This document shows, in pieces, positions 16,220 through 33,405 of a stretch of DNA of 64,000 nucleotides. The DNA is taken from positions 40,133 through 104,132 of the forward strand of contig UQIT01000003.1 of NCBI GenBank assembly GCA_900541175.1. The letters are read 5' to 3'. The DNA is from an uncultured Collinsella sp. (GTDB lineage Bacteria; Actinomycetota; Coriobacteriia; Coriobacteriales; Coriobacteriaceae). Below the pieces are notes generated by a model. The model saw only the letters and a list, made by a program, of their open reading frames with translations. It was not told the origin of the DNA and searched no databases. Both the position numbers and the translations under genes were made by a program. Numbering within the stretch: the stretch's first letter is position 1; the number at the start of each line of letters is the position of its first letter.

Positions 16220-16233
16220 TTACGGTTAACCCC

Positions 16234-17441: not shown

Positions 17442-17470
17442 ACACGGCTCCGGGCGTGTCCATTTTATAC
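17442..17470. repeat. Conserved motif copy (minus-strand sense ATGGACACGCCCGGAGCCGTGTATACG) in the unusually long rplW-rplB spacer.
   Basis: Near-identical to 19305..19333. The GGGCGT/ACGCCC palindrome (minus-sense GGGCGTATAAAATGGACACGCCC) and a GCCTCCC/GGGAGGC hairpin lie next to it in the same 104-bp spacer. Confidence 0.6.
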
Positions 17471-17536
17471 GCCCAAAACCTTGAGCTCTCGCCTCCCCTA
17501 TTTGGGAGGCATGAGCTCACTCAACAGCAGCGAGTC

Positions 17537-17824: not shown

Positions 17825-18451
17825 TTATGCAAGCACCTCCCCGAAGTGAGCGGCGATGTCGGCGGGCATCAGCACAGCGTTGTTGTTGACGAGATCGTAG
17901 GTGTTGGCCTCGTCGGCAGTGATGATGAACGTCTTGGGAATGTTGCGGAACGACAGGTAGGCGTTGACGTCCTCATCGCGAACGATGATGGTCAGACGCT
18001 TGCCCTCAAGGCCGAGAGCCTTGAGCATGGCTACGGCAGCCTTGGTGGAAGGCTTCTCGAAGCCGTAGTCGTCGACGAGCACGAGCTCGCCATCGGCCAG
18101 CTTGGCGGACAGCGCGGAGCGCATAGCCAGCTTGACCTCCTTGTTGTTCATACGCTTAGCGTAGGAACGGGGCTTGGGGGCGAAGACAACGCCACCGTGA
18201 CGCCACTGGGCAGCACGGATGGAACCCTGGCGGGCACGGCCGGTGCCCTTCTGACGCCAAGGCTTCTTGCCGCCACCGGAAACCTCAGAGCGGCCCTTAG
18301 CGGACTGGGTGCCCTGACGCCAAGAGGCCATCTGGCACTTGACGATGTGGTGCATAACGTGGATGTTCGGCTCGATGCCGTACACCTCAGCGGCGAGCTC
18401 GGCCTCGGCGACCTTCTTGCCCTCGCTGTTCTTTACTTCAAACTTTGCCAT
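17825..18451 (-). CDS. rplD: 50S ribosomal protein L4.
   Basis: L4 family match; operon context. Confidence 0.9.
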   Translation of the reverse strand: MAKFEVKNSEGKKVAEAELAAEVYGIEPNIHVMHHIVKCQMASWRQGTQSAKGRSEVSGGGKKPWRQKGTGRARQGSIRAAQWRHGGVVFAPKPRSYAKRMNNKEVKLAMRSALSAKLADGELVLVDDYGFEKPSTKAAVAMLKALGLEGKRLTIIVRDEDVNAYLSFRNIPKTFIITADEANTYDLVNNNAVLMPADIAAHFGEVLA

Positions 18452-18497
18452 TTAAGTGTTCTCCTTGGTATGACGCTGGGCTAAATGGGCTGGGCCC

Positions 18498-19118
18498 TTA
18501 GGCCATACGGATGGCGACGAGACCATTCTTGGCACCCGGGACAGCGCCCTTGACCAAGATGAGGTTCTGCTCGGCATCGATGCGGACAACGGAAAGGTTC
18601 TTGACGGTAACGCGCTCGTTACCCATGTGACCGGCCATCTTGACGCCCTTGAGGACGCGCGCAGGATAGGCGCACTGACCGATAGAACCGGGGTGACGCT
18701 GGAAGTGAGAACCATGCGTCATAGGACCGCGGCGCTGACCCCAGCGCTTGATGCGACCCTGGAAGCCCTTACCCTTGGAGGTACCGATGACGTCGACCTT
18801 CTCGACATCAGCGAAATCAGCGACGGTGACGACCTCGCCGACCTTGTGCTCCTCGCCGTTCTCGACGCGGACCTCACGAAGGAAGCGGACAGGCTCGACG
18901 CCAGCCTTGGCGAAGTGACCAGCCATGGGCTTGTTCACGTTCTTGGCCTTGATGTCGCCGAAACCGATCTGGACGGCATCATAGCCGTCGGTTGCCTGAG
19001 TTTTAACCTGCGAGACAGCGCAGGGGCCAGCCTGGATGACCGTGACGGGAACGACGTTGTCGTCCTCGTCCCAAACCTGGGTCATGCCAATCTTGCGGCC
19101 GAGAATCATGCTGATCAA
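18498..19118 (-). CDS. rplC: 50S ribosomal protein L3 (start is either TTG at 19118 or ATG at 19109).
   Basis: [14 protein letters not shown] is the canonical L3 N-terminus. No rpsJ is found upstream of it. Confidence 0.9.
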
Positions 19119-19304
19119 GATATGATCCCAACTCTCGCGTGGTCTTGGGACAATGCGTACACCACCGAGCGTACGCCCCTAGAGGACCACTACTTACACG
19201 ACGTGCTCCCCAGCCTTGTATTTCGCCCGGACTACCTGACAACCCTATTAAGCAGGCATTTTGTCCAGCCAGAATACTCCCCTGGTTTCACACAGCTGTT
19301 TAGT

Positions 19305-19333
19305 ATACACGGCTGCGGGCGTATCCATCGAGA
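19305..19333. repeat. Conserved motif copy (minus-strand sense ATGGATACGCCCGCAGCCGTGTATACT) about 190 nt upstream of rplC.
   Basis: Shares 24 of 27 nt with 17442..17470. TGTATACT resembles an extended -10 element. Confidence 0.6.
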
Positions 19334-19384
19334 TTCATATTTCACTCACATTGTTTACGCAGGTAAAGTGCGTGGAGTCGCCTG

Positions 19385-19524
19385 GGCTTGGCAGAGGGGC
19401 GGCGAAATATATTAAGTTTGCTGCTCTACAGTCCTGCGCAAGACGGAAAGCACATTAAGTGCTTTCCTTTGCGTGCGGAACTCGCGACAAACTTAATATA
19501 TTTCGCCGCCCCTCTGCCAAGCTC
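19385..19524. repeat. Long hairpin element, copy A, upstream of rplC: a perfect 34-bp outer stem enclosing an 82-bp core.
   Basis: Left arm CTTGGCAGAGGGGCGGCGAAATATATTAAGTTTG is the exact reverse complement of the right arm. The core is AAGTTTGCTGCTCTACAGTCCTGCGCAAGACGGAAAGCACATTAAGTGCTTTCCTTTGCGTGCGGAACTCGCGACAAACTT. Confidence 0.85.
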
Positions 19525-19566
19525 GGGAGACGACACGTTGATGTCTGCTTAACTCTGCTCGCTCAG

Positions 19567-20193
19567 CTAATTACTTTGTTGGGGGTCCACTATTTGCTGG
19601 AGGGTGAACTTGCATTGAGACGGTTCGCCTTCTGCTTGTGGCTTTGCCTCATCGAAATCGAAGATCATGATGGCGCAGTTGGGGAGTTTTGTTGGGAGCT
19701 CGAAGCCCTCTGGGGCTGCGGCCTTGATAAATTGGCGGCTGGCGCTGCCGTGGCTTACTGCTAGAAGGGTTTCGATGCCCTCGGAGCCCATGATATTGGT
19801 GAGAGTGTCCACCATGCGTTCTTGCAGCGCCTGGCTTCCTTCTCCTCCGTAAGGGACCAAGTCCTCGCCCGGATCCCAGACGTCGGTGGGTAGCGCGTCG
19901 TGTGGGCCCTCTTCGAAGGTGCCGTAGCAGCGCTCGATGATGCCTTCGCAGGGCTCGACTGCTGCGTCCGGGCCGAGGAGTTCGGTAGCGACGAGCTGAG
20001 CAGTGTCCATGGCTCGGCCTAAGGGCGAAGAGACCACTTTGTCGGGGACAACGTCGTGGCCCTTGAGCCATGCGGCTGCCATTCCCGCTTGTTTGCGGCC
20101 CAGGTCGGTCAGCGGTGAATCGCAGCGGCCCTGGACCAGCTTTTTGACGTTGAACTCCGTCTGACCGTGGCGGAGTAGATACAGCTTCTTCAT
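19567..20193 (-). CDS. Histidine phosphatase family protein (phosphoglycerate mutase-like).
   Basis: N-terminal catalytic RHG motif (LLRHGQTEFN). Confidence 0.8.
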   Translation of the reverse strand: MKKLYLLRHGQTEFNVKKLVQGRCDSPLTDLGRKQAGMAAAWLKGHDVVPDKVVSSPLGRAMDTAQLVATELLGPDAAVEPCEGIIERCYGTFEEGPHDALPTDVWDPGEDLVPYGGEGSQALQERMVDTLTNIMGSEGIETLLAVSHGSASRQFIKAAAPEGFELPTKLPNCAIMIFDFDEAKPQAEGEPSQCKFTLQQIVDPQQSN

Positions 20194-20232
20194 GCTCTCC
20201 CCTTCTGCATAACCTGCTTTGCCGGCACAGCC

Positions 20233-21393
20233 TTACTCGTGGGTATGCCCTACGTAGTCTTCGTCGATCGTAATCTTGGCAATCGACTTGGGATATTCCG
20301 ATTCGACCCGTTGTGCCAGCGCGTGCTTTAAGTCTTCGGCACTCATCTGCAGATCCGAGGGACGCACGCAGTCAAAGATCACGTTGGTGTGCGTAGGACC
20401 CGGCACACAGCGTAGGTCATGAATCGAGAGGCGGTTATCGATCTCCTGAGCCATGGCGTGAATGCGCAAGCGCATGCTCGCCACCTTTGGATCGTCGGTC
20501 ACGATGGGGTCGTAGTGAAGTGTGACAATCATGCCGTCTTCGTTCCTAAACGACTGCTCGATGTTATCGAGCGTGTCGTGACTTTCCAGCGGGCTGGCCT
20601 CGGCTGCCATCTCGGCGTGAGCGCTTGCGAACTTCCTGCCCGGGCCGTAATCGTGAACCATCAGATCGTGAACGCCCAAAACGCCGGGATAGCTCATGAT
20701 CTTGTCTCGAATGTGCTTGACCAGCTTAGGATCGGGCGTCTGGCCCAAAAGCGGGCTCACCGTATCCTGGATGAGTTCAAAACCGCTCCAGCCAATATAG
20801 GCACCAACGGCAAGGCCGACCCAAGCGTCAAGGTTGATGCCCGTCACCTGCGAAACAATTGCGCACGCCAGTACGGCGCCCGTGGCAAGAACATCGTTCT
20901 TGGAATCCTGCGCGGTCGCATGCAGCGTCTCGGACTCAATGCGATCGCCGAGCTTTTGGTTGAGGGCCGCCATCCAGAGCTTTACGACCATCGAAAGCAC
21001 TAGAACTGCCACCAGGGCAAGCGAGAACTCGACAGGTTCGGGGTGGATGACGCGCTCGACCGAGGACTTCACCAGCTCAACGCCAATCAGCAGCACGAGT
21101 GCCGCCACGACCAGACCCGAGAGATACTCGTAGCGACCGTGGCCGTAAGGATGCTCGGGGTCGGCCGGCTTGCTCGCCAGCTTAAAGCCCAGCACGCTCA
21201 CGATATTCGAGCTGGCATCGGACAGGTTGTTCATGGCATCCGCCACGATCGAAACCGATCCCGAAACCACACCAATTGCACTCTTCGCAGCACAAAGCGC
21301 AACATTGGCGACAATACACACCATGCCCGCTAACGTGCCCACACGCGCACGATCGCCCTGCGCGCGACGAACAATCCACTCGACCATCTGCAT
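20233..21393 (-). CDS. Cation diffusion facilitator (CDF) family divalent metal efflux transporter.
   Basis: Six predicted transmembrane segments with CDF signature region (SDASSNIVS); C-terminal cytoplasmic domain. Confidence 0.8.
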   Translation of the reverse strand: MQMVEWIVRRAQGDRARVGTLAGMVCIVANVALCAAKSAIGVVSGSVSIVADAMNNLSDASSNIVSVLGFKLASKPADPEHPYGHGRYEYLSGLVVAALVLLIGVELVKSSVERVIHPEPVEFSLALVAVLVLSMVVKLWMAALNQKLGDRIESETLHATAQDSKNDVLATGAVLACAIVSQVTGINLDAWVGLAVGAYIGWSGFELIQDTVSPLLGQTPDPKLVKHIRDKIMSYPGVLGVHDLMVHDYGPGRKFASAHAEMAAEASPLESHDTLDNIEQSFRNEDGMIVTLHYDPIVTDDPKVASMRLRIHAMAQEIDNRLSIHDLRCVPGPTHTNVIFDCVRPSDLQMSAEDLKHALAQRVESEYPKSIAKITIDEDYVGHTHE

Positions 21394-21465
21394 CCGCCCC
21401 CACGGTACTACTTATATATCTATTGCTCAAACGGATTGTAGTGTAGCCACTTTGCCCTCCAGATA

Positions 21466-21501
21466 CAAAAAGGCCGCAGCCCACACGGGCCGCGGCCTTG
21501 G
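21466..21501 (-). terminator. Intrinsic terminator after the PTS EIIC gene.
   Basis: Minus-strand read AAGGCCGCGGCCCGTGTGGGCTGCGGCCTT followed by TTTTTG. Confidence 0.65.
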
Positions 21502-21537
21502 AACACGACAAAGGGATCGTCCTTTTGTCGCACAGGT

Positions 21538-22777
21538 TTATGCGCTTACTTCAGCAGCGCTCGCCACTGTTTCGGGCGAATCGGCTCCGTCCTCCGTCGC
21601 CTGCCCCTTCGCCGGCACCACGCCAAAGCAGTAGCTCAGAGCCGCAGACACCACAAATGCCACACCGCCGGCAACGCAGCACCACAGCAGGTTCGAGATG
21701 CCGCCCGTAGCAAAGCCAATGACCATGAGGACATTCGTCATGCCGATGGTATAGGCCGTAACGTGGCCCACGGCCGCAACAAGGCCTCCGACGGCGCCGC
21801 CAATGGCCATACACGTCAGGCACCTGCCATATTTAAAGCCGCAACCGTACAGCGCCGGCTCGCTCACGCCGCCCAGAACACCCGAGATCGAATAGCCCAG
21901 CATGAGCGCCTTCTCGTCCTTATCCGCAACGCGGAGCGACGCGCCAAAGGGCATGCCCCAAACGGCAAACGTTGCCATCGTCGCGGCGATCAGAATGCAC
22001 GAATCCGTTCCCACACTCATAAACTGCGCGTAGGCGAGCGATAGGACGACGTTGCTGACGCCCGCGATCTTTAGGAACTCCCAGCCCGCGGCAAGCCCCA
22101 TGAGCGTGAGCAGCGACACGATGCCACCGGAATTGCCAAGCATAAACATAAGCTGGCCCAACAACATGCCCAAATAGCTGCCCGCCGGCGCCGTAATACA
22201 CAGCGAAACCGGAACCATGACAAGCATGGTCGCAAACGGAACGAACGAAAACGCCACGGCCTTAGGGATAACGCGCCGAAAGAAACACTCCACTCGCCAA
22301 AGCACGGGCACCGAGATGAGAACCGGAATAACAGTCGTCGTGTAATCGTTGACCGGCGCGGGAAGCAGGCCATACACGGAAGTCATCGATGCCCCCGTCG
22401 TCGATGCGGCATCGACGAGCTTAAGCAGATCGGGCGCAATCAATACGCCGCCCAGCATCATGCCCAGCTGCTCCGAGCAACCGAGCTGGCGGGCGGCCGC
22501 CCAACCAAGATAAATGGGCAAAAAGTAGTAGCCGGCGTTATAGAGCCAACTGTAGAACAGGCGATAGATTTCGGAATCGGCAGACCATAGGCCCAGCATG
22601 CCTTCGCCCATAATGACGGCGACGGTGCGGAACAACGCCGCGCAGACAATAAACGGCAGCGCCGACATCATGCTTTTGGACAGATAGTCCACCACGGCCA
22701 TGGCGTTTGATGAAACCGTCGTTGTAAACGAGGTGTTAGAAACTTGTGACACAGGAACCCTTTCCCAATGTGACATG
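21538..22777 (-). CDS. PTS sugar transporter EIIC component (glucose/maltose family); EIIC domain only.
   Basis: GISEP-like motif GGVSEPALYG. ATG at 22777 has an AAGGGA RBS, so the longer ORF start at 22950 is rejected. It lies 16 nt downstream of accDA on the same strand. Confidence 0.6.
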
Positions 22778-22792
22778 CGGACTGTCCCTTTG

Positions 22793-24517
22793 TTACATCG
22801 TGCTGTACCGACCGATTGCGCGGTACTTTTCGTAGCGGAGGTTTGCGAGGGTCGCGTCGTCGAGCCGCCCAAGCGTATCGAAGGCATCAAATGCCGAGGA
22901 CATGACGGCGCCGGCAATCTCCTCATGCGACAGGCCCCTATCGTCGACAATGCCGTCGATGATGCCGAGCGCCAACAGATCGGGGGCCGTGAGCTTCAGC
23001 GCCTCGGCGGCCTCATTCGCGCGCTCGGTATCCTTCCACAGGATCGACGCACAGGCCTCGGGGCTCACGACCGAATAGGCCGAGCTCGAGAGCATCAGGA
23101 TGCGGTCGGCCACGGACAGCGCTAGCGCGCCACCAGAGCCGCCCTCGCCTGTCACCACCGAGACAATCGGCGTCTTAAGGCCGCTCATCTCCATGAGATT
23201 CTGGGCAATTGCCTCGCCCTGGCCGCGCTCCTCGGCACCGATGCCGCAAAACGCGCCTGAAGTATCGACCAGGCACAGAACCGGCCGACCAAACTTTTCG
23301 GCCTGGCGCATAAGGCGACGCGCTTTGCGGTAGCCCTCGGGATGCGCCATGCCAAAGTTGCGGCGCATGCGCTCTTTGGTCGTGGTGCCGCGCTCGATGG
23401 CGATGACCGTTACGGGACGTCCGTCTTTCCAGCCAATGCCAGCCACCACAGCGGCGTCGTCGCCAAAGTAACGGTCGCCATGCAGCTCCACAAATCCGTC
23501 CAAGCCCAGCGAGATTATCTCACCCGCCGTGGCACGATCTGCCGAGCGGGTCTGTTTGACAATCTCGAGCGCGGTTTTTGGTGCCGCCGAGCGCTTAAAC
23601 AAGTGTCCCAGCTTTTTGCCGCGGCGACCCACATGCACAATCTCATGCGGTGCCCCCAGGCTGGGCGCATGCCCTTCGTGCAGCGCCAACAACTCGCCTA
23701 CCGTGAGCGTAATCTCGCCGCGCGGAACAACGGCATCGCACAAGCCGTGCTCCAGCAAAAACTCGGAGCGCTGGAATCCCTTGGGCAGGCGCTTGTGCAT
23801 GTTCTGCTCGATCACGCGCGGGCCGGCAAATGCCGTCAGGGCATCGGGCTCGGCCAGGATAATGTCGCCCTCCATGGCAAAGCTCGCGGTTACGCCTCCG
23901 GTCGTGGGGTCGGTGAGCACCGTGATATACAGGCCGCCCGCCTCGCTGTGGCGCCTAACCGCCGCAGAAATCTTGGCCATCTGCATAAGCGATGTCACGC
24001 CCTCTTGCATGCGCGCACCGCCCGAAACGGTAAAGCCGACAACTGGCAGCCCCAGCTCGGTCGCATGCTCAAATGTGCGACAGATCTTCTCGCCCACCAC
24101 GGAGCCCATCGAGCCCATCATAAAGTTGGCATCCATAAAGAAGAGCGCGGTATCGCAACCGCAGATTTTGCCCTTGCCGCACACAACGGCATCGCGCTCG
24201 CCCGAACGCTCGCTTACGCTCTTGAGCTTGTCGGCATAGCCGGGAAACGAGAGGAAGTCCTCCGACGCCAGATTTGCATCCCATTCCTCAAACGTGCCCT
24301 CGTCGACCGTCATGCGCATGCGCGCGCGACCGCTCACGCGAAAGTGTTTGCCGCAACGAGGGCAGACCTCGAGGTTGTCGCGCAGGCGTGCCTCATCGAT
24401 CACACGGCGGCACTCCGGACACTTGATAAACACGTGGCGCGCGGGAAACTCGGCGCACGACTCGGTCATCGGCCCCTCGAGGACGTTGACCGTCTTCGCT
24501 TTTCTATTCATCAGCAT
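22793..24517 (-). CDS. accD-accA: Acetyl-CoA carboxylase carboxyltransferase, fused beta (AccD, N-terminal) and alpha (AccA, C-terminal) subunits. Start may be internal (alternative ATG at 24469).
   Basis: N-terminal AccD zinc ribbon CPECRRV...CPRCGKHF. The C-terminal half matches AccA (RRNFGMAHPEGYRKARRLM, GEGGSGGALAL). Single ORF with no internal stop. Confidence 0.85.
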   Translation of the reverse strand: MLMNRKAKTVNVLEGPMTESCAEFPARHVFIKCPECRRVIDEARLRDNLEVCPRCGKHFRVSGRARMRMTVDEGTFEEWDANLASEDFLSFPGYADKLKSVSERSGERDAVVCGKGKICGCDTALFFMDANFMMGSMGSVVGEKICRTFEHATELGLPVVGFTVSGGARMQEGVTSLMQMAKISAAVRRHSEAGGLYITVLTDPTTGGVTASFAMEGDIILAEPDALTAFAGPRVIEQNMHKRLPKGFQRSEFLLEHGLCDAVVPRGEITLTVGELLALHEGHAPSLGAPHEIVHVGRRGKKLGHLFKRSAAPKTALEIVKQTRSADRATAGEIISLGLDGFVELHGDRYFGDDAAVVAGIGWKDGRPVTVIAIERGTTTKERMRRNFGMAHPEGYRKARRLMRQAEKFGRPVLCLVDTSGAFCGIGAEERGQGEAIAQNLMEMSGLKTPIVSVVTGEGGSGGALALSVADRILMLSSSAYSVVSPEACASILWKDTERANEAAEALKLTAPDLLALGIIDGIVDDRGLSHEEIAGAVMSSAFDAFDTLGRLDDATLANLRYEKYRAIGRYSTM

Positions 24518-25847
24518 AGAGATGCCCCATCAGATCGGTGTGGTACATGCCCGACAAGAACTCGTCGTTTGCCAGCACGTCGAGCTGAAGCTCGCTGTTT
24601 TCGCTCACGCCTTCAATCACGAGCTCGCCCAGGGCCGAGCGCATCTTACGAATAGCGCCGTCACGCGTGGGCGCACACACGATGAGCTTGCCGAGCATAG
24701 AGTCGTAGTACGGCGGAACTTTCGCACCGGTAAACATGGCGGAATCCCAGCGTACGCGCGGACCACCCGGCACACGCAACGCGGTGACCGTTCCACATGA
24801 CGGCAGAAAGTCCGGCGTCTCGGCATTGATGCGGCACTCCATGGCGTGGTTTCGGACCGGCATGTCCTCCTGCTCAAAGGGCAGAGGCTGGCCGGCTGCC
24901 ACACGCAGCTGCCCCTTGACCAGGTCGGTATCGGTCACAAACTCCGTAACCGGATGCTCCACCTGCAAGCGCGTGTTCATTTCCATAAAGTAGAAATTGC
25001 CGTCGTCCGAATACAGAAACTCAATGGTGCCGGCGCCCTCATAGCCAACGGCACGAGCCAGGTCGCGCGCGGCCTTGTGCATGCGCGCGCGAATATCATC
25101 GCGTCCGTCGAGGCACGGCGCGGGGCTCTCCTCGATCAGCTTTTGGTTGCGACGCTGCACCGAGCACTCGCGCTCGCCGAGCGAAAACACATGGCCCAGC
25201 TTATCGGCCATAATCTGCACCTCAACGTGGTGCGCCGGCGCGACGAACTTCTCCATGTAGCACTCGCCGTCGCCAAAAACGGCCTCGCCCTCGGCACGCG
25301 CCTCGATGAACGCCTTTGCCGCATCTTCCACGCGCTCGACCTTGCGAATGCCGCGACCGCCACCACCTGCACGTGCCTTAATAAGCACGGGGCAGCCAAT
25401 GCGCTCGGCCTCGGCCGTCGCCTCCTCGGGGCTTTTGAGCAAATCGCAGCCCGGCACGATGGGCACGCCCGCCGCGGCAGCCGTTCGACGTGCGGCGTCC
25501 TTGTCGCCCATGCTGTCGATCACCTCGGCCGAAGGACCGACAAACGCCAGGCCATACTTGTCGCAGTCGCGCACGAAGCTCGCCTTCTCAGAAAAGAAAC
25601 CGTAGCCAGGATGGATTGCCTTTGCCCCCGACTTCACGGCACAGGTGAGCACAGCATCGTCGTTGAGATAGCTCTCGGCAAGACGCGGGCCACCGATGCA
25701 ATACGCCTCGTCGGCAAGCTGCACGTGCAGCGCGTCCGCATCGGCCGTGGAATAAATGGCGACGGTCTTGATGCCCATATCGCGGCACGCGCGGATAACA
25801 CGGACCGCGACTTCGCCGCGGTTGGCGATGAGCACTTTGTCGAACAT
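24504..25847 (-). CDS. accC: Acetyl-CoA carboxylase biotin carboxylase subunit.
   Basis: MFDKVLIANRGEVAVRVIRAC; RBS AAGGAAGG precedes ATG at 25847. The 73 codons upstream in the ORF track are an extension. Confidence 0.9.
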   Translation of the reverse strand: MFDKVLIANRGEVAVRVIRACRDMGIKTVAIYSTADADALHVQLADEAYCIGGPRLAESYLNDDAVLTCAVKSGAKAIHPGYGFFSEKASFVRDCDKYGLAFVGPSAEVIDSMGDKDAARRTAAAAGVPIVPGCDLLKSPEEATAEAERIGCPVLIKARAGGGGRGIRKVERVEDAAKAFIEARAEGEAVFGDGECYMEKFVAPAHHVEVQIMADKLGHVFSLGERECSVQRRNQKLIEESPAPCLDGRDDIRARMHKAARDLARAVGYEGAGTIEFLYSDDGNFYFMEMNTRLQVEHPVTEFVTDTDLVKGQLRVAAGQPLPFEQEDMPVRNHAMECRINAETPDFLPSCGTVTALRVPGGPRVRWDSAMFTGAKVPPYYDSMLGKLIVCAPTRDGAIRKMRSALGELVIEGVSENSELQLDVLANDEFLSGMYHTDLMGHLYADE

Positions 25848-25857
25848 GAAGCCTTCC

Positions 25858-26289
25858 TTAACTTTCGTGCATGAGTGCAAAGGACATATCGGCGCGGCAG
25901 CAAACCTCACCGTTGACGCTCGCGGTACCCGTCGCAAAGCGGAACGGCCCGCGCGCACGCGTGATGGAGCACACCAGATCCACCGTGTCGCCCGGGCGCA
26001 CCGGACGCTTAAAGCGCACCTTGTCCAGACTCGTGTAGAACGGCGTCGCGCCGCGCGCCTCCTCATCGCCCATCAGCAGCACGCAGCAGTTCTGGGCGAG
26101 CATCTCGCACTGAATCACGCCGGGGACGACCGGGTTTCCCGGAAAATGCCCCTGCAAAAAGTACTCGTCGCCCGTAATCGTGATCTTGCCGTGGGCCTCG
26201 TCGCCCACCAGCTCGGCTTCGTCGAGCAAAAGCATCGGCTCGCGATGCGGTAACAGCTTCTTGAGCTCTTCTTTGTTCATGGATATCAC
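25858..26289 (-). CDS. fabZ: 3-hydroxyacyl-ACP dehydratase FabZ.
   Basis: HFPGNPVVPGV hotdog motif. Confidence 0.9.
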   Translation of the reverse strand: MISMNKEELKKLLPHREPMLLLDEAELVGDEAHGKITITGDEYFLQGHFPGNPVVPGVIQCEMLAQNCCVLLMGDEEARGATPFYTSLDKVRFKRPVRPGDTVDLVCSITRARGPFRFATGTASVNGEVCCRADMSFALMHES

Positions 26290-26763
26290 CTATCCGATCC
26301 TCATGAGGCAGCTGCCAAACTCCACGAGGTCGCCGTCGGCCACGCAGATCTCGAGCACCTCGCCATCCGCCTCGGCCGTTACCTCGTTGAGAACCTTCAT
26401 GGCCTCGATGATGCAGAGGGTCTCGCCGGCCTTGACCTTAGAGCCCACGTGCACAAACGGCTCGTCGCCCGGCGCCGGGGCAGCATAGAAAACGCCGACC
26501 ATGGGAGCGGTCACCTCGGTGCCCTTGGGCTCCGGTGCGGCGGCAGGTGTCTGCGCGGCGGGCTCCGGTGCGGCAGGCGCGACTGTGGGAGCTTCAACTG
26601 GAGCGGCCATAGCGCTCGGCATAGGCATGGGCACGGCAACCGGCTGCGCTGCACTCGCGCGCTCGAGCTCAACCGCGGTGCCATCGGGCTCCTCAACGCG
26701 CACGCGCGTGAGGCCGCGGTCCTCCATAACATCGGCTATCTCGGCAAGTCTTTTGGAATCCAT
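26290..26763 (-). CDS. accB: Biotin carboxyl carrier protein AccB.
   Basis: Biotinyl-lysine motif EAMKV and a Pro/Ala-rich linker. Confidence 0.85.
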   Translation of the reverse strand: MDSKRLAEIADVMEDRGLTRVRVEEPDGTAVELERASAAQPVAVPMPMPSAMAAPVEAPTVAPAAPEPAAQTPAAAPEPKGTEVTAPMVGVFYAAPAPGDEPFVHVGSKVKAGETLCIIEAMKVLNEVTAEADGEVLEICVADGDLVEFGSCLMRIG

Positions 26764-26766
26764 GCT

Positions 26767-28032
26767 CTAGCTCCTCGTATATCTACGCAGCGCGATGGCG
26801 GCGTTGTGCCCGCCAAAGCCCAGGTTGGTCGAAAGCGCCCAGGTAAGGTCGGCGCGAACCGCGCGATTGGGCGTGTAGTCAAGATCGCAGGCGGGATCGG
26901 GCGTGTGGTAGTTAATGGTCGGCGGCACCACGCCCTGCTCGAGCGCCATGGCGCAGGCCATGACCTCGATGGCACCCGTGGCACCGATCATGTGGCCGGT
27001 CATCGACTTAGTCGACGAGACGCGCGCGGCGCGCGCCGCGTCCTCGCCGAGCGCACGCTTAATGCCCGCCGTCTCGGACGAATCGTTGAGCTTGGTCGAG
27101 GTGCCGTGGGCATTGATGTAGAGACCCTCGGAAGGCCTGACGTCGCCCTCGGTCACCGCCAGCGATATCGCGCGGGCAATGCCGGCAGCCTCGGGATCAG
27201 GGCTCGTGATGTGATAGGCATCATCGGTGTTGCCGTAGCCCACGACCTCGGCATAAATGTGCGCACCGCGCGCCTGCGCATGTTCCATGCTCTCGAGTAC
27301 CAGCACGCAGGCGCCCTCGCCCATCACAAAGCCATCGCGGTCTGCATCGAACGGGCGGCAAGCCGTCGCGGGATCGGGGTTGGTGGTCAATGCACGGCAG
27401 GACGTAAAGCCTGCAACGGCATCGGGGATAATGGCCGCCTCGGCGCCGCCCGCGAGGATCGCGTCGGCATAGCCATGCTTGATGGCGCGGAACGCCTCGC
27501 CCACCGCATGGGCCGAGGTTGCGCACGCGGTCACCACGGGCAGGGTCGGGCCCTTTGCCTTGTGGCGGATCGCGATATTGCCCGATGCCATGTTGGGGAT
27601 CATCATCGCGATCATATAGGGCGATGCGCGGCGGGGCCCACGGTCGGCAATCGTATGGACGTTGTCGACAAGCGTCTGCATGCCGCCCACGCCCGAGCCC
27701 ACGTAGACGCCCAGGCGCTCGCGATCGATGGCGCCTTCGACATCAAAGCCCGCATCGTGCATCGCCTCGTCCGAAGCCGCCATCGCAAACTGAACGCAGG
27801 GGTCGAGATGCTTGGCGTCACGCTTGCCAAAGTACTCGTTGCCGTCAAAGCCCTTGACCTCGGCCGCCACCTTGACGGCAAATGCATCGGTATCGAAGTG
27901 CGTAATCGGGCCGATGCCGCACGTGCCAGCGCACATTGCCGCCCAGGTGGCAAGCGCGGTGTTGCCGAGCGGCGATACGGCACCTATGCCGGTGATTGCA
28001 ACTCTCTGTTCCATCATGGTCTCCTCATCCAA
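26767..28032 (-). CDS. fabF: Beta-ketoacyl-ACP synthase II.
   Basis: Active-site Cys (ACATSAH) and His residues. The start may be a few codons in from the ORF start. Confidence 0.9.
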   Translation of the reverse strand: MDEETMMEQRVAITGIGAVSPLGNTALATWAAMCAGTCGIGPITHFDTDAFAVKVAAEVKGFDGNEYFGKRDAKHLDPCVQFAMAASDEAMHDAGFDVEGAIDRERLGVYVGSGVGGMQTLVDNVHTIADRGPRRASPYMIAMMIPNMASGNIAIRHKAKGPTLPVVTACATSAHAVGEAFRAIKHGYADAILAGGAEAAIIPDAVAGFTSCRALTTNPDPATACRPFDADRDGFVMGEGACVLVLESMEHAQARGAHIYAEVVGYGNTDDAYHITSPDPEAAGIARAISLAVTEGDVRPSEGLYINAHGTSTKLNDSSETAGIKRALGEDAARAARVSSTKSMTGHMIGATGAIEVMACAMALEQGVVPPTINYHTPDPACDLDYTPNRAVRADLTWALSTNLGFGGHNAAIALRRYTRS

Positions 28033-28053
28033 GCCGTTCTTCGGCCCTGATTT

Positions 28054-28827
28054 CTACATCGCCATTCCGCCGTCAACGCGTACAACCTCGCCCGTAATGT
28101 AGGAAGCCGCATCGCTCGCCAAAAAGCGCACCACGCCGGCCACTTCCTCGGGGCGCGCCATGCGCTTAAGGGGAATCTGCTCCTCGGTTGCCGCACGAAC
28201 CTTTTCCGAAAGCTTTGCCGTCATATCTGTCTCGACAAACCCGGGGGCGACCGCGTTCACTCGTACGCCGCGGGGCGCAAGCTCGCGCGCCACCGCCTTG
28301 GTCAGGCCGATCACGCCCGCCTTGGAGGCAGCGTAGTTGGCTTGCCCGGCATTGCCCATCAGGCCCACAACCGAGCTCATGTTGACGACGCAGCCGCCGC
28401 GCTGGCGCATAAAGGTCTTGGTGAGCGTGCGCGTCATGTTAAACGTTCCTTTAAGATTGACATCGAGCACACGATCGAAGGCGTCATCGCCCATGCGCAT
28501 GAGCAGGCCATCGCGGGTGATGCCAGCGTTGTTGACGAGCGCCCAAATGGAGCCAAAGTCGTTGAGGACCGTCTCCACGCAAGTGTTGACGGCGGCGGGG
28601 TCGGCCACGTCACATTGATATGCGCGCGCCGTGGCGCCTGACGCCTCGCAGGCTTCGCACGTCTCGCGCGCCGCATCTGCGCTACCGGCATAGACGACGG
28701 CGATATCAAAGCCGTCCTCCGCCAGGCCCACGGCACAAGCGCGACCGATGCCGCGCGAGCCGCCCGTGACAAGCGCCACGCGACGTGAGTCGTTGCGCTC
28801 GAGCGCGCCGTTGTTCAAGTTGCCCAT
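28054..28827 (-). CDS. fabG: 3-oxoacyl-ACP reductase FabG.
   Basis: SDR family: TGGSRGIG and YAASKAG. Confidence 0.9.
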   Translation of the reverse strand: MGNLNNGALERNDSRRVALVTGGSRGIGRACAVGLAEDGFDIAVVYAGSADAARETCEACEASGATARAYQCDVADPAAVNTCVETVLNDFGSIWALVNNAGITRDGLLMRMGDDAFDRVLDVNLKGTFNMTRTLTKTFMRQRGGCVVNMSSVVGLMGNAGQANYAASKAGVIGLTKAVARELAPRGVRVNAVAPGFVETDMTAKLSEKVRAATEEQIPLKRMARPEEVAGVVRFLASDAASYITGEVVRVDGGMAM

Positions 28828-28857
28828 GTCATTCCTTTCGGGTTACAGCCCTGTGAA

Positions 28858-29784
28858 CTATGCGAGCTCGTCGGCAATAGCTGCGACCTGCTCGGCCGTT
28901 TCGCACGAATACACGCGAACGTCGCTCAACGTACGCTTGACCAGGCCCGACAGCGTTTTGCCGGGGCCGACCTCAATAAACGTGTCGATGCCCTGATCCT
29001 GCAGAGTGTGCAGTGTGTCGACCCAGCGCACGGCATGGCTCACCTGGTTGGCCAAGACATCCGATGCCGCCTGCGGGTCGGCCGGATAGGGCGCCGCCGT
29101 CATATTTGCCATGACCGGAATGTGCAACGGGGACGGGGCGTGCCCGGCCTCGATATATGCAGCAAGGCCACAGGTCGCCTCGGCCATATAGGGGCTATGG
29201 AATGCACCCGACACCGCGACCTTCATGGCCCGGCCACCAGCCTCTTTTACCAGGACGTCGAGGGTCTGCAACGCATCGGGCGCTCCGGCCACAACCGTCT
29301 GCTGCGGGCTGTTGTAGTTGACCGGCCAGCAGTCCTCGCCGGCCTTTTTTGCCAAGCCCTCGACCTGCGCCGCATCGAGTTTGATGACGGCGCGCATGCC
29401 GCCGGGGTGACGCTCAGCCGCCGTGGCCATCAATGCCGCGCGCTCACACACGAGCTCAAAGCCCGCTCTCGTATCGAATGCCCCCGCAAAGGTGAGTGCA
29501 GCGACCTCGCCCAGCGAGAATCCCGCACAGGAGGCAGGCACCACGCCGCGCTCACGCAGGGCGACGGCGACAGCCAAGTCGTGCACGAACACGCAAGGCT
29601 GTGTGTTCTCGGTCTGCGAGAGCTCCTCCTTGGAGGCGCTCCGGCACTGCTCGCTGGTCCCCGGGCGCACCTCGTCGGCAATGGCGAACACCTCGGCAGC
29701 TGCCGGCGATGCTTCGATGAGGTCGACGCCCATCGCGGGATGCTGGGCACCCTGACCGGCAAACAGAAACGCTACGCTACCCAT
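28858..29784 (-). CDS. fabD: Malonyl CoA-ACP transacylase FabD.
   Basis: GFSLGE active-site motif. Confidence 0.9.
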   Translation of the reverse strand: MGSVAFLFAGQGAQHPAMGVDLIEASPAAAEVFAIADEVRPGTSEQCRSASKEELSQTENTQPCVFVHDLAVAVALRERGVVPASCAGFSLGEVAALTFAGAFDTRAGFELVCERAALMATAAERHPGGMRAVIKLDAAQVEGLAKKAGEDCWPVNYNSPQQTVVAGAPDALQTLDVLVKEAGGRAMKVAVSGAFHSPYMAEATCGLAAYIEAGHAPSPLHIPVMANMTAAPYPADPQAASDVLANQVSHAVRWVDTLHTLQDQGIDTFIEVGPGKTLSGLVKRTLSDVRVYSCETAEQVAAIADELA

Positions 29785-30719
29785 GCGGACGCACCCTTCA
29801 GGACATGCTCGGCGCCATCGACCAGATCGTCAACGATTTCGCGTGCGCTCTGGCGTTCGTTGACCATGCCGGCAATCTGTCCGCACAAATACGAACCCTC
29901 TTCGTAATTACCGTCCTTTGCAGCTTTACGAAGCGCGCCCGTGCCCATGGCCCCAAGCTCCTCGGGGCTTGCGCCCGCCGCCTCGTTCTTGGCATACGCG
30001 TTAGTGAAGGGGCTCTTGAGGGCGCGAACCGGATGTCCCGTCGAGCGACCGGTCGCACGCGTCGACGTGTCGCCCGCCTTGAGCACCAGCTCTTTGTACT
30101 GTTCGGATACGGTGCACTCGTTTGCGACCAGAAAGCGTGTTCCCACCTGGACGCCGGCGGCGCCGAGCATAAAGGCGGCCGCCACACCGCGGCCATCGGC
30201 GATGCCGCCAGCCGCAACCACGGGAATATCGACCGCATCGACAACCTGCGGCACTAGTGCCATCGTCGAGGTCTCTCCAATATGGCCGCCTGATTCGGTG
30301 CCCTCTGCAACCACGGCAGTTGCTCCGCGACGCGCCACGAGACGCGCCAGCGCCACCGAAGCCACGACGGGTATGACCTTGATGCCTGCATCGTTCCAGG
30401 CCTTCATGTACTTGGTGGGATTGCCGGCGCCGGTCACCACAACGGGCACCCGCTCATCAATCACCACTTGTGCGACCTCGTCGACAAACGGGCTCATGAG
30501 CATAACGTTGACGCCAAAGGGCTTATCCGTCTTGGCGCGCAGCTCGTGAATCTGATCGCGCAGCCAGTTTGCGTCGGCATTCATGGCCGCGATAATGCCT
30601 AAGCCGCCCGCCTCGGACACGGCAGATGCCAGCGAGGCGTCGGCAATCCAGGCCATGCCACCCTGGAATACGGGCTTTTCGATGCCGAGCAGATCGCAGA
30701 GAGGAGACTTGAGCATCAC
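29772..30719 (-). CDS. fabK: Enoyl-ACP reductase II (FMN-dependent, nitronate monooxygenase fold) FabK.
   Basis: FabK-type protein at the fabK position of the streptococcal-order cluster. No FabI/FabL/FabV homologue in the cluster. Confidence 0.8.
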   Translation of the reverse strand: MMLKSPLCDLLGIEKPVFQGGMAWIADASLASAVSEAGGLGIIAAMNADANWLRDQIHELRAKTDKPFGVNVMLMSPFVDEVAQVVIDERVPVVVTGAGNPTKYMKAWNDAGIKVIPVVASVALARLVARRGATAVVAEGTESGGHIGETSTMALVPQVVDAVDIPVVAAGGIADGRGVAAAFMLGAAGVQVGTRFLVANECTVSEQYKELVLKAGDTSTRATGRSTGHPVRALKSPFTNAYAKNEAAGASPEELGAMGTGALRKAAKDGNYEEGSYLCGQIAGMVNERQSAREIVDDLVDGAEHVLKGASAWVA

Positions 30720-30955
30720 TACTTCTCCAATGCCGCCTCGACCGTATCGACGAACTCGCCGACCGTCTTGGGGTTCTCCTCGGTATCGAGCTCAATGCCA
30801 AACTCGTCCTCGACGGCAACGAGGATCTCGACGGTACCCAGACTGTCGAGGCCAATCTCCTCGAGCGTGGACTCGGGCTTCATCTCGACATCGTCAAGGC
30901 CGGCGGTCTCGCGGATAACGTCGCAAACCCGCTCGAAGGTCTTCTGATCTGCCAT
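30719..30955 (-). CDS. acpP: Acyl carrier protein.
   Basis: MADQKTFERV..., with the LDSL phosphopantetheine attachment site. RBS AAAGGAGAAG precedes ATG at 30955. Confidence 0.9.
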   Translation of the reverse strand: MADQKTFERVCDVIRETAGLDDVEMKPESTLEEIGLDSLGTVEILVAVEDEFGIELDTEENPKTVGEFVDTVEAALEK

Positions 30956-31007
30956 GGTACTTCTCCTTTGTTTGTGCCCCAGGGGCGTTTTCATTTCCTA
31001 TGTGCAA

Positions 31008-31967
31008 CTACTTCCAGCGAAGTAGATAGCCACCTACATCCAAGCCGGCGCCAAATCCGACCAGGGCGATGGTGTCGCCCGCGTGCAGCGCGCCGGTACT
31101 TGCCAGTCGATCGAGAGCAAGCGGAATACAGGCACTCGAGATGTTGCCGGTTTCACGCAACGTTCGGACCACACGGTCATCCGGCACACCCAGGCGCTTG
31201 ACTGCCTGGCTCAAGATTCGTTCGTTAGCCTGATGGAATACAAAGTGGTCGATGTCCTCGACCGCGATGCTCGCGTCGCAGGCGAGCTTGTTGACCGTGT
31301 CGCAGATGGCATTGACGCCAAACTTGAAGACGCGACGGCCGTTCATGGAAAGCACGCTTTCGCAGTCCTGCGCCGTCTTATACGGCGAGGAGCCCGCCAA
31401 TCCGGGGACGCGCAGTGTTTCGACGTCAGGCGACGTCGAAAGCTCAACAGCAAGGGGATTCTCTCCCCCAGCCTCTATGACCGCAGCACCCGCGCCATCG
31501 CCAAAGAGCACGCACGTGGCACGGTCGGTCCAATCGAGCGCGCGCGTCATCTGCTCGGCGGCAACGACCAGCACGTGCTTGGCGCGACCGCGGGCGATAT
31601 AGCCCTCGGCGACATCGAGCGCAAATACGAAGCCGGCACAAGCCGCCGAAACGTCGAAGGCTGGACATGTGGCACCCAGGCGCTCAGCAACGGCGCACGC
31701 TTCGGCAGGAACGAGATGATCGCCCGTCGTCGTCGAGCAGACGATAAGATCCAGCTGGCTCGCATCGATTCCGGATACCTGAAGCGCCCGCTCGCTCGCC
31801 GCTACGGCAAGGTCGTCGAGTGACTCAGTGGTGCAGACGTGGCGGCTCTTGATACCGGTACGGGTAAAAATCCACTCATCCGAGGTATCGAGGAACTCGG
31901 ACAGCTCGTCATTGGAAACACTGCGCGCAGGAAGCGCCGAGCCTGTTCCAAGAATCGTGAAACCCAT
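31008..31967 (-). CDS. fabH: Beta-ketoacyl-ACP synthase III.
   Basis: MGFTILGTGSALP... RBS AAAGGAGG precedes ATG at 31967. The longer ORF to 32024 has no RBS and overlaps the operator-like repeat. Confidence 0.9.
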   Translation of the reverse strand: MGFTILGTGSALPARSVSNDELSEFLDTSDEWIFTRTGIKSRHVCTTESLDDLAVAASERALQVSGIDASQLDLIVCSTTTGDHLVPAEACAVAERLGATCPAFDVSAACAGFVFALDVAEGYIARGRAKHVLVVAAEQMTRALDWTDRATCVLFGDGAGAAVIEAGGENPLAVELSTSPDVETLRVPGLAGSSPYKTAQDCESVLSMNGRRVFKFGVNAICDTVNKLACDASIAVEDIDHFVFHQANERILSQAVKRLGVPDDRVVRTLRETGNISSACIPLALDRLASTGALHAGDTIALVGFGAGLDVGGYLLRWK

Positions 31968-31984
31968 CACTAACCTCCTTTGAG

Positions 31985-32050
31985 TTGTTGACGTGTTTAC
32001 ATCGACCAAGAGAGGATAGCGCATTTCAGTCGTTGTTGACGTGTTAACAT
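31985..32050. promoter_or_regulatory. Two direct copies of a 19-bp operator-like motif, GTTGTTGACGTGTT(T/A)ACAT, in the fabH-birA divergent intergenic region.
   Basis: Copies at 31985-32003 and 32032-32050, 47 bp centre to centre. Each contains a TTGACG -35-like hexamer and a near-palindrome (GTTGAC...GTTAAC). Confidence 0.55.
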
Positions 32051-32143
32051 TAAATTGTCCAAATGCGACAAAGGCTTCACATTGTGTCTGTCTCTCGACA
32101 CCATTGCGTTATTCACTTATTCATTAAGGAGGTAGCAGCCGCT

Positions 32144-32920
32144 ATGGATGCCCAATTAACGATAGTCGACGTAACCGGATCGACCAACGATGACCTGCTC
32201 GAAGCAGGAAAACAAGGAGCTCCGCACGGCACAGGACTTGCCGCCCGGGCTCAGACAGCAGGACGTGGCCGGCGCGGCCACAAGTGGGATTCAACCGCCG
32301 GCAACCTATTGCTTTCGATTGTCCTGCGTCCATGCGTTAATCCTGCAAAGTACTCTGGTCTTGCAGCCGTCAGCGGCCTAGCGGTGCTCGAGGCGCTCGA
32401 AAATCAGGGTCTTGCAAACGAGATTGGCCTCAAATGGCCCAACGATCTGGTCGCGCGAGGACGCAAGCTCGGCGGCATTCTGGTCGAGGCCGCACGCGAT
32501 AACGAAGGCAAACCTTTCGCCGTCTGCGGCATTGGCGTCAATGTGAACTACACGCCCCAAGAGGTGCCCGATGGCGGCCTGGCGGCAATTGGCCTCTCAG
32601 ACCTCAACGAAACTGTTCCCGCCGTCGATGTGCTACTCAAAGAGGTCTATCACGCAGTTATAGAAGCTGTAGATGCGTGGGCAGAGCGTCTCAACGCCAT
32701 GGAAAAAGACGCCGGACCGCTCGCGCCCGTCCACGGCGAATATATCGGTCATCTCAATTGGATTGGGGAGCGCGTTACCGCCCGCTCCCCCGCTGGGGAC
32801 GAGCTGGCGCGTGGCATCTTTCAAACGGTCGATGACTTTGGTCGCGCGTGCATCGAGACGGAAGACGACTTGCGATCCTTCCATTTTGAGGAGGCATCTC
32901 TGCGTCCCATTGGTAAATAA
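32144..32920 (+). CDS. birA: Biotin--[acetyl-CoA-carboxylase] ligase, group I (no N-terminal HTH).
   Basis: GRGRRGHKW biotin-binding motif. AAGGAGG sits upstream of ATG at 32144 with an 11-nt spacer. Divergent from the fab/acc cluster, which includes its substrate AccB. Confidence 0.8.
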   Translation: MDAQLTIVDVTGSTNDDLLEAGKQGAPHGTGLAARAQTAGRGRRGHKWDSTAGNLLLSIVLRPCVNPAKYSGLAAVSGLAVLEALENQGLANEIGLKWPNDLVARGRKLGGILVEAARDNEGKPFAVCGIGVNVNYTPQEVPDGGLAAIGLSDLNETVPAVDVLLKEVYHAVIEAVDAWAERLNAMEKDAGPLAPVHGEYIGHLNWIGERVTARSPAGDELARGIFQTVDDFGRACIETEDDLRSFHFEEASLRPIGK

Positions 32921-32979
32921 GGCGCCACAGCCACCCATTCGGCCGCATTATCCGGGCCCCGGAGGCCATCATTCAAAAC

Positions 32980-33015
32980 AAAAGAGCCCCGCTACCGTAA
33001 TGGCAGCGGGGCTCT
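32980..33015. terminator. Bidirectional intrinsic terminator between birA (+) and rpsJ (-).
   Basis: AAAAGAGCCCCGCTACCGTAATGGCAGCGGGGCTCT. Confidence 0.65.
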
Positions 33016-33036
33016 GTAAGCTATGAGCGATATCGC

Positions 33037-33345
33037 TTAGAGCTTGATGTCGATGTCGACGCCAGCGGGGAGGTCGAGACGCATGAGCGAATCAACGGTG
33101 CCCGAGGTGGGGTCGAGGATGTCGATGAGGCGCTTGTGGGTGCGCATCTCGAACTGCTCACGGGAGTCCTTGTTCACGTGCGGCGAGCGGATAACCGTGT
33201 ACAGGTTGCGCTCGGTGGGCAGGGGGACAGGACCGGAAACGCGAGCGCCGGTCTTCTGAGCGGTCTCGACGATGAGCTTCGCGGACTGATCGACGACCTC
33301 GTGATCATAGCCCTTGAGGCGAATGCGGATCTTCTGGGTAGCCAA
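33037..33345 (-). CDS. rpsJ: 30S ribosomal protein S10.
   Basis: [44 protein letters not shown] is canonical S10. It lies 60 nt downstream of fusA, about 14 kb from rplC. Confidence 0.95.
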
Positions 33346-33405
33346 CTTAAACCTCCAAAGAGTGCGAGAGATGTTCTCGCGGATTACGTAACAGGGAGCT
33401 CGAAC

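Follow-up and report, generated by a model that had tools for sequence, protein, structure and literature searches.

Separation of rpsJ from rplC and a structured leader upstream of rplC in Collinsella and other Coriobacteriia

In the str operons of cyanobacteria and plastids, the gene for ribosomal protein S10 (uS10) stands behind that of elongation factor Tu (EF-Tu), in the order rps12-rps7-fus-tufA-rps10. Genes for the type II synthesis of fatty acids (FAS II) adjoin a ribosomal-protein gene in E. coli, where the cluster rpmF-plsX-fabHDG-acpP-fabF is partly co-transcribed, and the order fabH-acpP-fabK-fabD-fabG-fabF-accB-fabZ-accC-accDA is known from Streptococcus and Clostridium. The insertion of genes between ribosomal operons, with a later loss of synteny, has been described (PMC8046335). 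In Archaea, uS10 is always encoded apart from uL3-uL4-uL23 (PMC10833476). The L4 leader of E. coli is restricted to Gammaproteobacteria (PMC3616713), and a candidate L4 r-leader has been reported 5' of rplC-rplD-rplW-rplB in Archaeoglobi (Eckert and Weinberg 2020, PMC7247131). Here, we describe the str and S10 genes in a stretch of 64,000 nucleotides from an uncultured Collinsella sp. (contig UQIT01000003.1, positions 40,133 to 104,132; the whole stretch is called the window below), in which rpsJ, the gene for S10, lies directly behind fusA and far from rplC, the gene for L3, and a structured RNA precedes rplC.

The most probable reading of the locus is that it represents a state typical of the Coriobacteriia: rplC and the genes behind it form a unit with a leader of its own, preceded in the Coriobacteriales by a promoter, rpsJ stays with the str genes, and the gap between the two is a hotspot for the insertion of other genes. 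The open reading frames (ORFs) of the window were chosen with guidance from the GC content at third codon positions (GC3), and gene identities were obtained from NCBIfam profile scans of the window proteins (Table 1). By its sequence the window is Collinsella aerofaciens: its RplC, read from the ATG at 19109, is the exact L3 of that species, and the same protein occurs on at least 1000 public contigs. The particulars given in a preliminary description of the window, made from the letters alone, were all recovered. The genes follow the order rpsL-rpsG-fusA-rpsJ with no tuf directly 3' of fusA, and tblastn with an actinobacterial EF-Tu query found no homologue in the window; rpsJ comes 60 nt after fusA and is followed by a terminator; rplC starts 13,918 nt from the rpsJ stop codon rather than tens of nucleotides, with a long hairpin (copy A) upstream; the block in between holds the biotin-protein ligase gene birA, FAS II genes, a phosphotransferase system (PTS) EIIC permease, a cation diffusion facilitator (CDF) and a histidine phosphatase, every one of them identified in the NCBIfam scans; the spc part ends at rplX with a terminator, and rplE is not next; and a galU-like gene stands between rplL and rpoB. 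The interpretation attached to these facts was borne out in part: the gene order and the uncoupling of rpsJ from rplC stood, while the views that the rearrangement is an oddity of this genome and that the block is accessory did not.

The distribution of the fusA-rpsJ junction was determined by scanning species-representative genomes with RpsJ and classifying the loci by tblastn. In 11 of the 12 Collinsella species loci, fusA is followed after about 64 nt by rpsJ, then by birA in minus orientation and by fabH through accDA; the contig of the twelfth stops just past rpsJ. The fusA-rpsJ junction without tuf was also present in Coriobacterium glomerans PW2 (L081), in metagenome-assembled genomes (MAGs) of Atopobiaceae (L014) and Atopobium (L015, L016), in Paratractidigestivibacter (L083), on an Olsenella-like contig (L084), and in the Collinsella-like genomes L082, L086, and L087. 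The spacing between the two genes was 36-82 nt across the Coriobacteriales loci. Among the 63 loci from outside the Coriobacteriia (L018-L080), rpsJ lay about 15-80 nt, mostly 20-45 nt, from rplC, and in those that contained fusA this gene preceded rpsJ by about 1.3 kb or more. EF-Tu was found in 43 loci, namely full-length in 41 of the non-Coriobacteriia and further in the environmental Coriobacteriia-like loci L107 and L088; none was found by tblastn, with a query not taken from a close relative, in any Coriobacteriales locus retrieved. The junction without tuf occurs across the Coriobacteriales, being common to Coriobacteriaceae and Atopobiaceae, and the split arrangement is lineage-typical and of modest interest rather than a one-off. 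The synteny comparison that had been proposed beforehand largely came out on the side of a lineage trait. The order that had been called canonical (rpsL-rpsG-fusA-tuf, then rpsJ-rplC-rplD) is not universal; in Archaea uS10 stands apart (PMC10833476). A literature search retrieved no published description of the coriobacterial arrangement.

The arrangement resembles that of Archaea, cyanobacteria, and plastids in that uS10 is linked to elongation factor genes and separated from uL3-uL4-uL23-uL2. It differs from them in that the Coriobacteriales unit lacks tuf and has rpsJ directly behind fusA. The likeness is probably convergent rather than inherited.

The content of the rpsJ-rplC gap varied strongly, with at least eight different contents across the Coriobacteriales, as in insertions between operons. 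Only a spacer is present in C. glomerans (392 nt), L014 (386 nt), L017 (191 nt), L095, and L133. The histidine phosphatase gene alone occupies the gap in L083 and L124, a HAD gene together with it that of L084, and a Bax1-I gene that of L086. The gap holds CDF in L087, L143, and L166, and CDF plus histidine phosphatase in L082, L172, and L192 as well as in L193, L161, and L201, three contigs with a short allele. An oxidoreductase gene and the histidine phosphatase gene follow rpsJ in L013, a contig that ends before rplC. birA and FAS II alone lie in the gap of L128, which spans rpsJ to rplC, and FAS II is found directly 5' of rplC or its leader in L085 and L127, in which the sequence beyond birA/fabH is not covered. 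The window carries the full set of birA, FAS II, EIIC, CDF, and histidine phosphatase; the EIIC gene is missing from L165 and L128. The gap is a hotspot with variable content. CDF and/or histidine phosphatase also stand in the gap of L082, L083, L084, L087, and L193; these two genes are its older residents, and what had been called an accessory block is composite and was built in steps.

The short allele gives the clearest view of one such step. The RpsJ of L193, L161, and L201 is 98-100 % and their RplC 100 % identical to that of the window, and the contigs read rpsJ-CDF-histidine phosphatase-rplC. In blastn, they match the window as far as the rpsJ stop codon (33035) and then again from 21503 onwards; therefore, birA-FAS II-EIIC is a clean presence/absence polymorphism in the C. 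aerofaciens complex. The three contigs are independent and share one identical junction, at which the terminator that lies 3' of EIIC in the window sits directly behind rpsJ.

Insertions of this kind recall the Brandis-type cases, in which unrelated small gene sets are placed at operon boundaries and the operons become further separated: bfd-bfr or ilv-leu between str and S10, or nrdHEF after rplL, the galU-like gene behind rplL in Collinsella being of the same type. Unlike those cases, which are from Gammaproteobacteria and Bacilli, the Collinsella boundary lies one gene further on (rpsJ|rplC) and there is another inside the canonical spc operon (rplX|rplE); also, the Collinsella site is polymorphic among close relatives. 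The process is of the same kind as in the described inter-operon insertions, with the boundary shifted by one gene.

An exact repeat of 85 nt, shared at 100 % identity by the core of copy A and by a copy upstream of rpsL, could mislead assemblers and would speak for a misjoining of the 14-kb block between rpsJ and rplC. One metagenome contig (L189:1-2000) does join rpsG(-)-rpsL(-) to rplC(+) across the shared core, either by a real inversion between the hairpin copies or by misassembly at the repeat. The junctions of the block, however, are not at the repeat. Both recur in many independent assemblies: rpsJ-birA-FAS was seen in 11 species genomes, and the opposite end, FAS/EIIC-CDF-histidine phosphatase-rplC, on no fewer than 15 metagenome contigs. 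Moreover, L191 is unbroken from birA to rplD and L128 from rpsJ to rplD. A chimeric assembly, which the preliminary description had allowed for, is extremely unlikely.

The FAS II genes could also have arrived as a recent horizontal island, of the Firmicutes type with fabK, that broke an intact, co-transcribed rpsJ-rplC operon in Collinsella and so caused the uncoupling. The clean presence or absence of the 11.5-kb segment among very close relatives would fit such an event, as would the gene order shared with Streptococcus and Clostridium. The same order is found in L085, L127, and L128. The window proteins, however, are 59-85 % identical to those of the distant cluster in L127, which lies directly 5' of the rplC leader. 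A similar cluster stands directly 5' of rplC in L085 (identified by Pfam calls only, with no identities computed), the RplC of which is about 82 % identical to that of the window. Values of 59-85 % fit the divergence of RplC between Coriobacteriales loci, and FAS II appears to be native to the order and not foreign. In the Olsenella-like L084 (L084:1-4620), a cluster fabZ-accC-accDA-DegV was observed directly 5' of rpsL and not 3' of rpsJ; across the order, therefore, FAS II remains loosely tied to the str/S10 region, in one of two alternative places. The block contains no integrase and no tRNA, all its ORFs being metabolic or transport genes, no direct repeats flank the indel junctions, and its GC content (0.59-0.65) is like that of the flanks, without a shift in composition; a mobile island was ruled out on these grounds. 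As insert-free relatives already have a hairpin behind rpsJ, a promoter, and a leader in a spacer of 190-390 nt, the recent arrival of an island is an improbable cause of the uncoupling.

The transcriptional uncoupling of rpsJ and rplC is well supported at the level of sequence by the terminator behind rpsJ and by the conserved extended -10 box and structured leader 5' of rplC. The rplC upstream regions of ten loci retrieved by protein homology were aligned, and an extended -10 (TGTGTATACT) was conserved in all Coriobacteriales regions included, about 110-190 nt 5' of the leader. The spacer-only relatives C. glomerans, L014, and L017 (190-390 nt) all carry this box and the leader, and in those that were folded, L017 excepted, a strong GC-rich hairpin lies directly 3' of rpsJ. 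Of these hairpins, only that of L133 has the classical form of a terminator, T-run included; the one in C. glomerans is without a T-run. Because insert-free relatives already carry hairpin, promoter, and leader, the uncoupling is older than the 14-kb block. The earlier view that the rearrangement alters the coupling of rpsJ and rplC agrees with terminator, -10 box, and leader, but the change predates the block to which it had been tied. On the other side of the junction, fusA and rpsJ would be co-transcribed across their 60-nt spacer, which has a GGAGG Shine-Dalgarno sequence and in which a terminator scan flagged nothing; in function, rpsJ would close the str operon. A short hairpin of 6 bp (GCGAGA-acat-TCTCGC) can be seen in this spacer by eye. 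Transcription would stop at 32983, and that of rplC-rplX would start from the conserved -10 box.

A leaky rpsJ terminator would turn the whole region into one read-through operon, rpsJ-FAS II-EIIC-CDF-histidine phosphatase-rplC, which could tie membrane and ribosome synthesis together to growth rate. The orientation of the block genes, which apart from birA are on the strand of the ribosomal genes, is compatible with this, the two alternative positions of FAS II beside str/S10 genes could be read in the same sense, and co-transcription of fab genes with a ribosomal-protein gene has a precedent in E. coli rpmF-plsX-fab. Two strong terminators and the convergent birA lie in the path, however, and the content of the gap differs even between close relatives, which argues against a selected co-transcription; we consider such an operon very unlikely. 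The likeness to E. coli is that fatty acid genes adjoin a ribosomal-protein gene, and the difference is that terminators and the convergent birA part FAS II from rpsJ in Collinsella.

The RNA upstream of rplC is built of three paired elements: P1 (GUGGUC/GACCAC), P2 (UAGGG/UCCCA in the window; most relatives have UGGGG/UCCCA), and P3, a sequence-variable hairpin with a loop that is commonly (C)AAGGG. It always lies 20-25 nt 5' of the rplC start, directly 5' of the Shine-Dalgarno sequence. RNAalifold on six sequences gave seven pairs with compensatory changes. A covariance model, R1, recovers the leader, at 56-75 bits, from all Coriobacteriales loci in which the region is covered, and it was present in 11 of 11 protein-homology loci covering the rplC upstream region, including that of Anaerosomatales L211. 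When metagenome contigs were subjected to a pattern scan and then to cmsearch, 85 matches with 44 distinct sequences were obtained. In these 44 leaders, 93.8 % of the cells pair; shuffles gave 79.5 % and slid controls 37-49 %, and none of 500 shuffles reached the observed values. Compensatory changes occur in 11 of 19 pairs, including all eight of P3 and the outer pair of P1 (UA 31, CG 11, AU 1); neither P3 nor the outer P1 pair was among the positions that the search pattern fixed. The leader is a covariation-supported structure directly 5' of a ribosomal-protein gene. Across the class, its unpaired or internal-loop nucleotides are near-invariant, reading CC(G/U)CU at the 5' and A(U/A)G at the 3' side.

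The leader extends beyond the order. It was found in the rpsJ-rplC spacers, of 109-130 nt, of environmental lineages with an RplC 56-66 % identical to that of Collinsella (L088, L103, L107, L115, L116, L129, L137, L164, L176, L179, L185, L205). The nearest named relatives of the L107 RplC are MAGs called 'Coriobacteriia bacterium' and 'Anaerosomatales bacterium', and this locus reads fusA-tuf-rpsJ-leader-rplC. L211, from Anaerosomatales and retrieved by protein identity, reads tuf, 36 nt, rpsJ, 109 nt with the leader, and rplC through rplX-rplE. In the 63 non-Coriobacteriia loci, tuf-rpsJ spacers included, R1 scored nothing above 19 bits, and homology to a leader 5' of rpsJ elsewhere was rejected for that reason. 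Rfam 15 gave no match at gathering thresholds in the whole window, and at E values up to 10 the region 19050-19600 gave only spurious matches to a plant miRNA and a Pyrobaculum sRNA. Nothing 5' of rplC is listed for Coriobacteria or Actinobacteria in two surveys of ribosomal leaders (PMC7247131, PMC3616713), and no published description of the rplC leader was found in the literature search.

The leader shares with the Archaeoglobi L4 r-leader candidate its place directly 5' of rplC in a setting where S10 is outside the operon; it differs in belonging to another domain of life and in its motif, the Rfam search giving no match in sequence or structure. The order of the genes from rplC to rpsQ (14136-19118) is that of the E. 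coli S10 operon, which has a structured RNA directly 5' as well, placed for possible autogenous control. In Collinsella, unlike in E. coli, rpsJ is outside the unit, the leader precedes rplC instead of rpsJ and is without detectable similarity to any Rfam family, and the unit runs on through rplN-rplX.

The leader would most likely serve in the translational autoregulation of its operon by one of the encoded proteins. L4 is a putative ligand because of two precedents, the E. coli leader and the candidate 5' of rplC in Archaeoglobi, and L3 because its gene is adjacent. Many 5' hairpins simply stabilise mRNAs, and the element might be no more than such a hairpin or an RNase processing site without a feedback ligand; this agrees with the scan of E. 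coli rrnH with R1, which gave no significant rRNA mimicry. We consider it unlikely, as the near-invariant unpaired nucleotides that accompany the covarying stems, the Shine-Dalgarno spacing fixed at about 20 nt, and a related motif 5' of rplN in two environmental lineages are typical of a protein-binding site and not of a generic stabiliser. An operator is favoured by the invariant internal-loop nucleotides together with the fixed distance to the Shine-Dalgarno sequence.

The motif 5' of rplN is a weaker copy of the leader motif (CCGGUCCGCUCGG...CCGAUGACCGG) in the rpsQ-rplN spacers L107:8352-8394 and L211:11880-11923, with 27.8 and 20.7 bits. It gives a hint that two units may answer to a single protein. 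In the window (14018-14135), as in L081, L014, and L083, the same spacer has a conserved hairpin of another kind, GUGCGC...GCGCACCUCU, with UUCGGAGGAA behind it; this hairpin of the Coriobacteriales may be another candidate rplN leader. With the filters of R1 off, the leader P2 and its flanks (CUGGGG...GUCCCAAG) were seen to be identical to the base of helix 91 (H91) in E. coli 23S rRNA (L208:4780-4801, corresponding to 23S 2521-2542), the closing G-U pair included, at E = 1.6. The weaker copy upstream of rplN in L107 and L211 does not share the helix-91-like P2, and literature on the protein contacts of H91 was uninformative.

Several points weigh against the reading given at the outset. The rplC promoter escaped a simple promoter scan, and the terminator and promoter assignments are predictions from consensus or conservation. 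The best match of R1 in rrnH, the one to helix 91, was weak and partial (6.7 bits) and is taken as a lead and not as support. For most of the 44 leaders the search pattern fixed part of P1 and P2, so that conservation there is partly imposed, and the unbiased covariation is that of P3 and the outer P1 pair only. In Collinsella, tuf was found neither in the window nor in any retrieved locus, Eggerthellales were not explicitly identified among the loci compared, and some steps at the gap may have been either gains or losses of histidine phosphatase, CDF, or FAS.

The most economical sequence of events would have four steps. Early in the class the leader would have arisen, together with a promoter-like -10 located right at the stop codon of rpsJ. 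In the Coriobacteriales tuf would then have left its position beside rpsJ, which became the terminal gene of rpsL-rpsG-fusA-rpsJ. The rpsJ-rplC spacer would next have grown to hold a terminator and a promoter, and finally genes would have accumulated in the gap, histidine phosphatase and CDF before birA-FAS II-EIIC. Insertions at rpsJ|rplC would have been tolerated because the junction had become a boundary between operons, in keeping with the pattern that genes inserted between ribosomal operons weaken the selection for synteny. A further account, for and against which we see about equal odds, gives the leader the causal part: as a class-wide ribosomal-protein leader new to description, it would let one of the proteins encoded in the operon, L4 or L3 being the most plausible, repress translation at the ribosome-binding site next to it. 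It would also have assumed the part of the S10-operon leader, freed rpsJ to join the elongation-factor operon, and made the junction a neutral landing site. Such a takeover would explain the 14-kb block.

Table 1 Features of the str, gap, and L3 operon regions in the window
Feature	Position	Strand	Basis and remarks
rpsL	36072-36449	-	NCBIfam equivalog (str genes: TIGR00981, TIGR01029, TIGR00484)
rpsG	35525-35998	-	NCBIfam equivalog
fusA	33406-35505	-	NCBIfam equivalog
fusA-rpsJ spacer	33346-33405	-	Sequence; exactly 60 nt, GGAGG Shine-Dalgarno, without tuf
rpsJ (S10)	33037-33345	-	NF001861, 168.6 bits
Predicted intrinsic terminator 3' of rpsJ	32983-33015	-	Terminator scan and fold; 14-bp stem with 10 GC pairs, then TTTTGTTTTG
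Indel segment of 11.5 kb (rpsJ terminator, birA, FAS II, EIIC)	21504-33034		Present in long allele, absent in short allele
birA (biotin-protein ligase)	32063-32920	+	TIGR00121; convergent with rpsJ, divergent from fabH
FAS II operon (fabH-acpP-fabK-fabD-fabG-fabF-accB-fabZ-accC-accD/A fusion)	22793-32024	-	NCBIfam equivalogs
PTS EIIC-only permease	~21538-22950	-	Matches only ~95-457 of EIIBC/EIIABC models
Predicted intrinsic terminator 3' of EIIC	21470-21499	-	Terminator scan and junction sequences
CDF cation-efflux transporter	20233-21393	-	TIGR01297
Histidine phosphatase	19567-20193	-	His_Phos match
Long hairpin, copy A, 5' of rplC promoter	19371-19537	-	Repeat search; fold -97 kcal/mol, z = -13
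Putative rplC promoter, extended -10 (TGTG-TATACT)	19302-19310	-	Cross-species alignment
rplC leader, ~56 nt	19139-19195	-	Covariance model R1, 65.5 bits
rplC	18498-19118	-	NCBIfam equivalog
L3 operon, rplC through rplX	13330-19118	-	NCBIfam equivalogs
rplX	13330-13635	-	NCBIfam equivalog
Terminator 3' of rplX	13270-13301	-	Fold z = -5.4
galU-like gene between rplL and rpoB	47143-48051		NCBIfam and terminator scan; terminators on both sides

Among the genes named, birA is the only one on the plus strand. accD and accA form a single carboxyltransferase ORF of 574 amino acids (22793-24517), a fusion that is also present in L084 and L085; the true start of EIIC is probably downstream of its overlap with accDA.

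The junction behind rplX broke in the same way as rpsJ|rplC. Downstream of rplX, the window has an oxidoreductase gene and then a DeoR regulator gene, and rplE was not found in the window. rplX-rplE is intact in L014, L083, L084, and L085, interrupted by a single gene in C. glomerans, and fully broken in the window, L082, and L086. rplE, which the preliminary description had proposed to seek elsewhere, was found at the head of a separate cluster in Collinsella L209 and L210, where genes like metNIQ, for a methionine-type ATP-binding cassette (ABC) transporter, and a gap of 336 nt precede rplE through rplQ; the Collinsella cluster runs from rplE through secY-adk-map-infA-rpmJ-rpsM-rpsK-rpsD-rpoA-rplQ.

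Three very stable hairpins (19371-19537, 36656-36794, and 49648-49774; about -97 kcal/mol, z about -13) precede the promoter regions of rplC, rpsL, and rplJ. Two of them share the 85-nt core mentioned above, their outer arms, of 36-50 bp, being different. The inner stem varies from copy to copy and from species to species, with compensatory changes, around an invariant loop, CACUUAAUGUG, with flanking motifs UUCCGCACG and CAGGACU. No hairpin of this kind was seen outside the Collinsella loci; insulators, terminators, an RNase III site, or a protein-binding element are possible identities. The region upstream of rplJ (49367-49650) has no Rfam L10_leader match at the gathering threshold. Further upstream (49871-53963) are genes for an aminotransferase, a deoxyinosine glycosylase, and a protein of the alpha-amylase family; as rplK-rplA is not there, the secE-nusG-rplKA unit is detached too. 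Between rpoC and rpsL lies an ORF of 358 amino acids (orf358, 37130-38206; GC 0.53) without an NCBIfam match. It is flanked by inverted repeats of 40 nt in the region 36819-38803, and a copy of the arm with 90 % identity is present at 10911-10962. orf358 is a variable insertion, as it is missing from Collinsella sp. 4_8_47FAA (L002), and it is possibly a mobile element.

The order of the ribosomal super-cluster is often treated as near-invariant in annotation and operon prediction. With an operon boundary at rpsJ|rplC in a whole class of Actinomycetota, pipelines that place rpsJ first will mis-assign units in taxa abundant in the gut, such as Collinsella, Olsenella, and relatives of Atopobium. 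The graded series of gaps, from a mere spacer to 14 kb, together with the exact 11.5-kb indel, is a natural example of cluster erosion once a boundary exists, and the presence or absence of FAS II may serve as a strain marker in Collinsella. The clean FAS II polymorphism and the rplC leader without an Rfam match are the parts worth following up; the leader, as a concrete candidate for a new ribosomal autoregulatory RNA, is the most novel of them.

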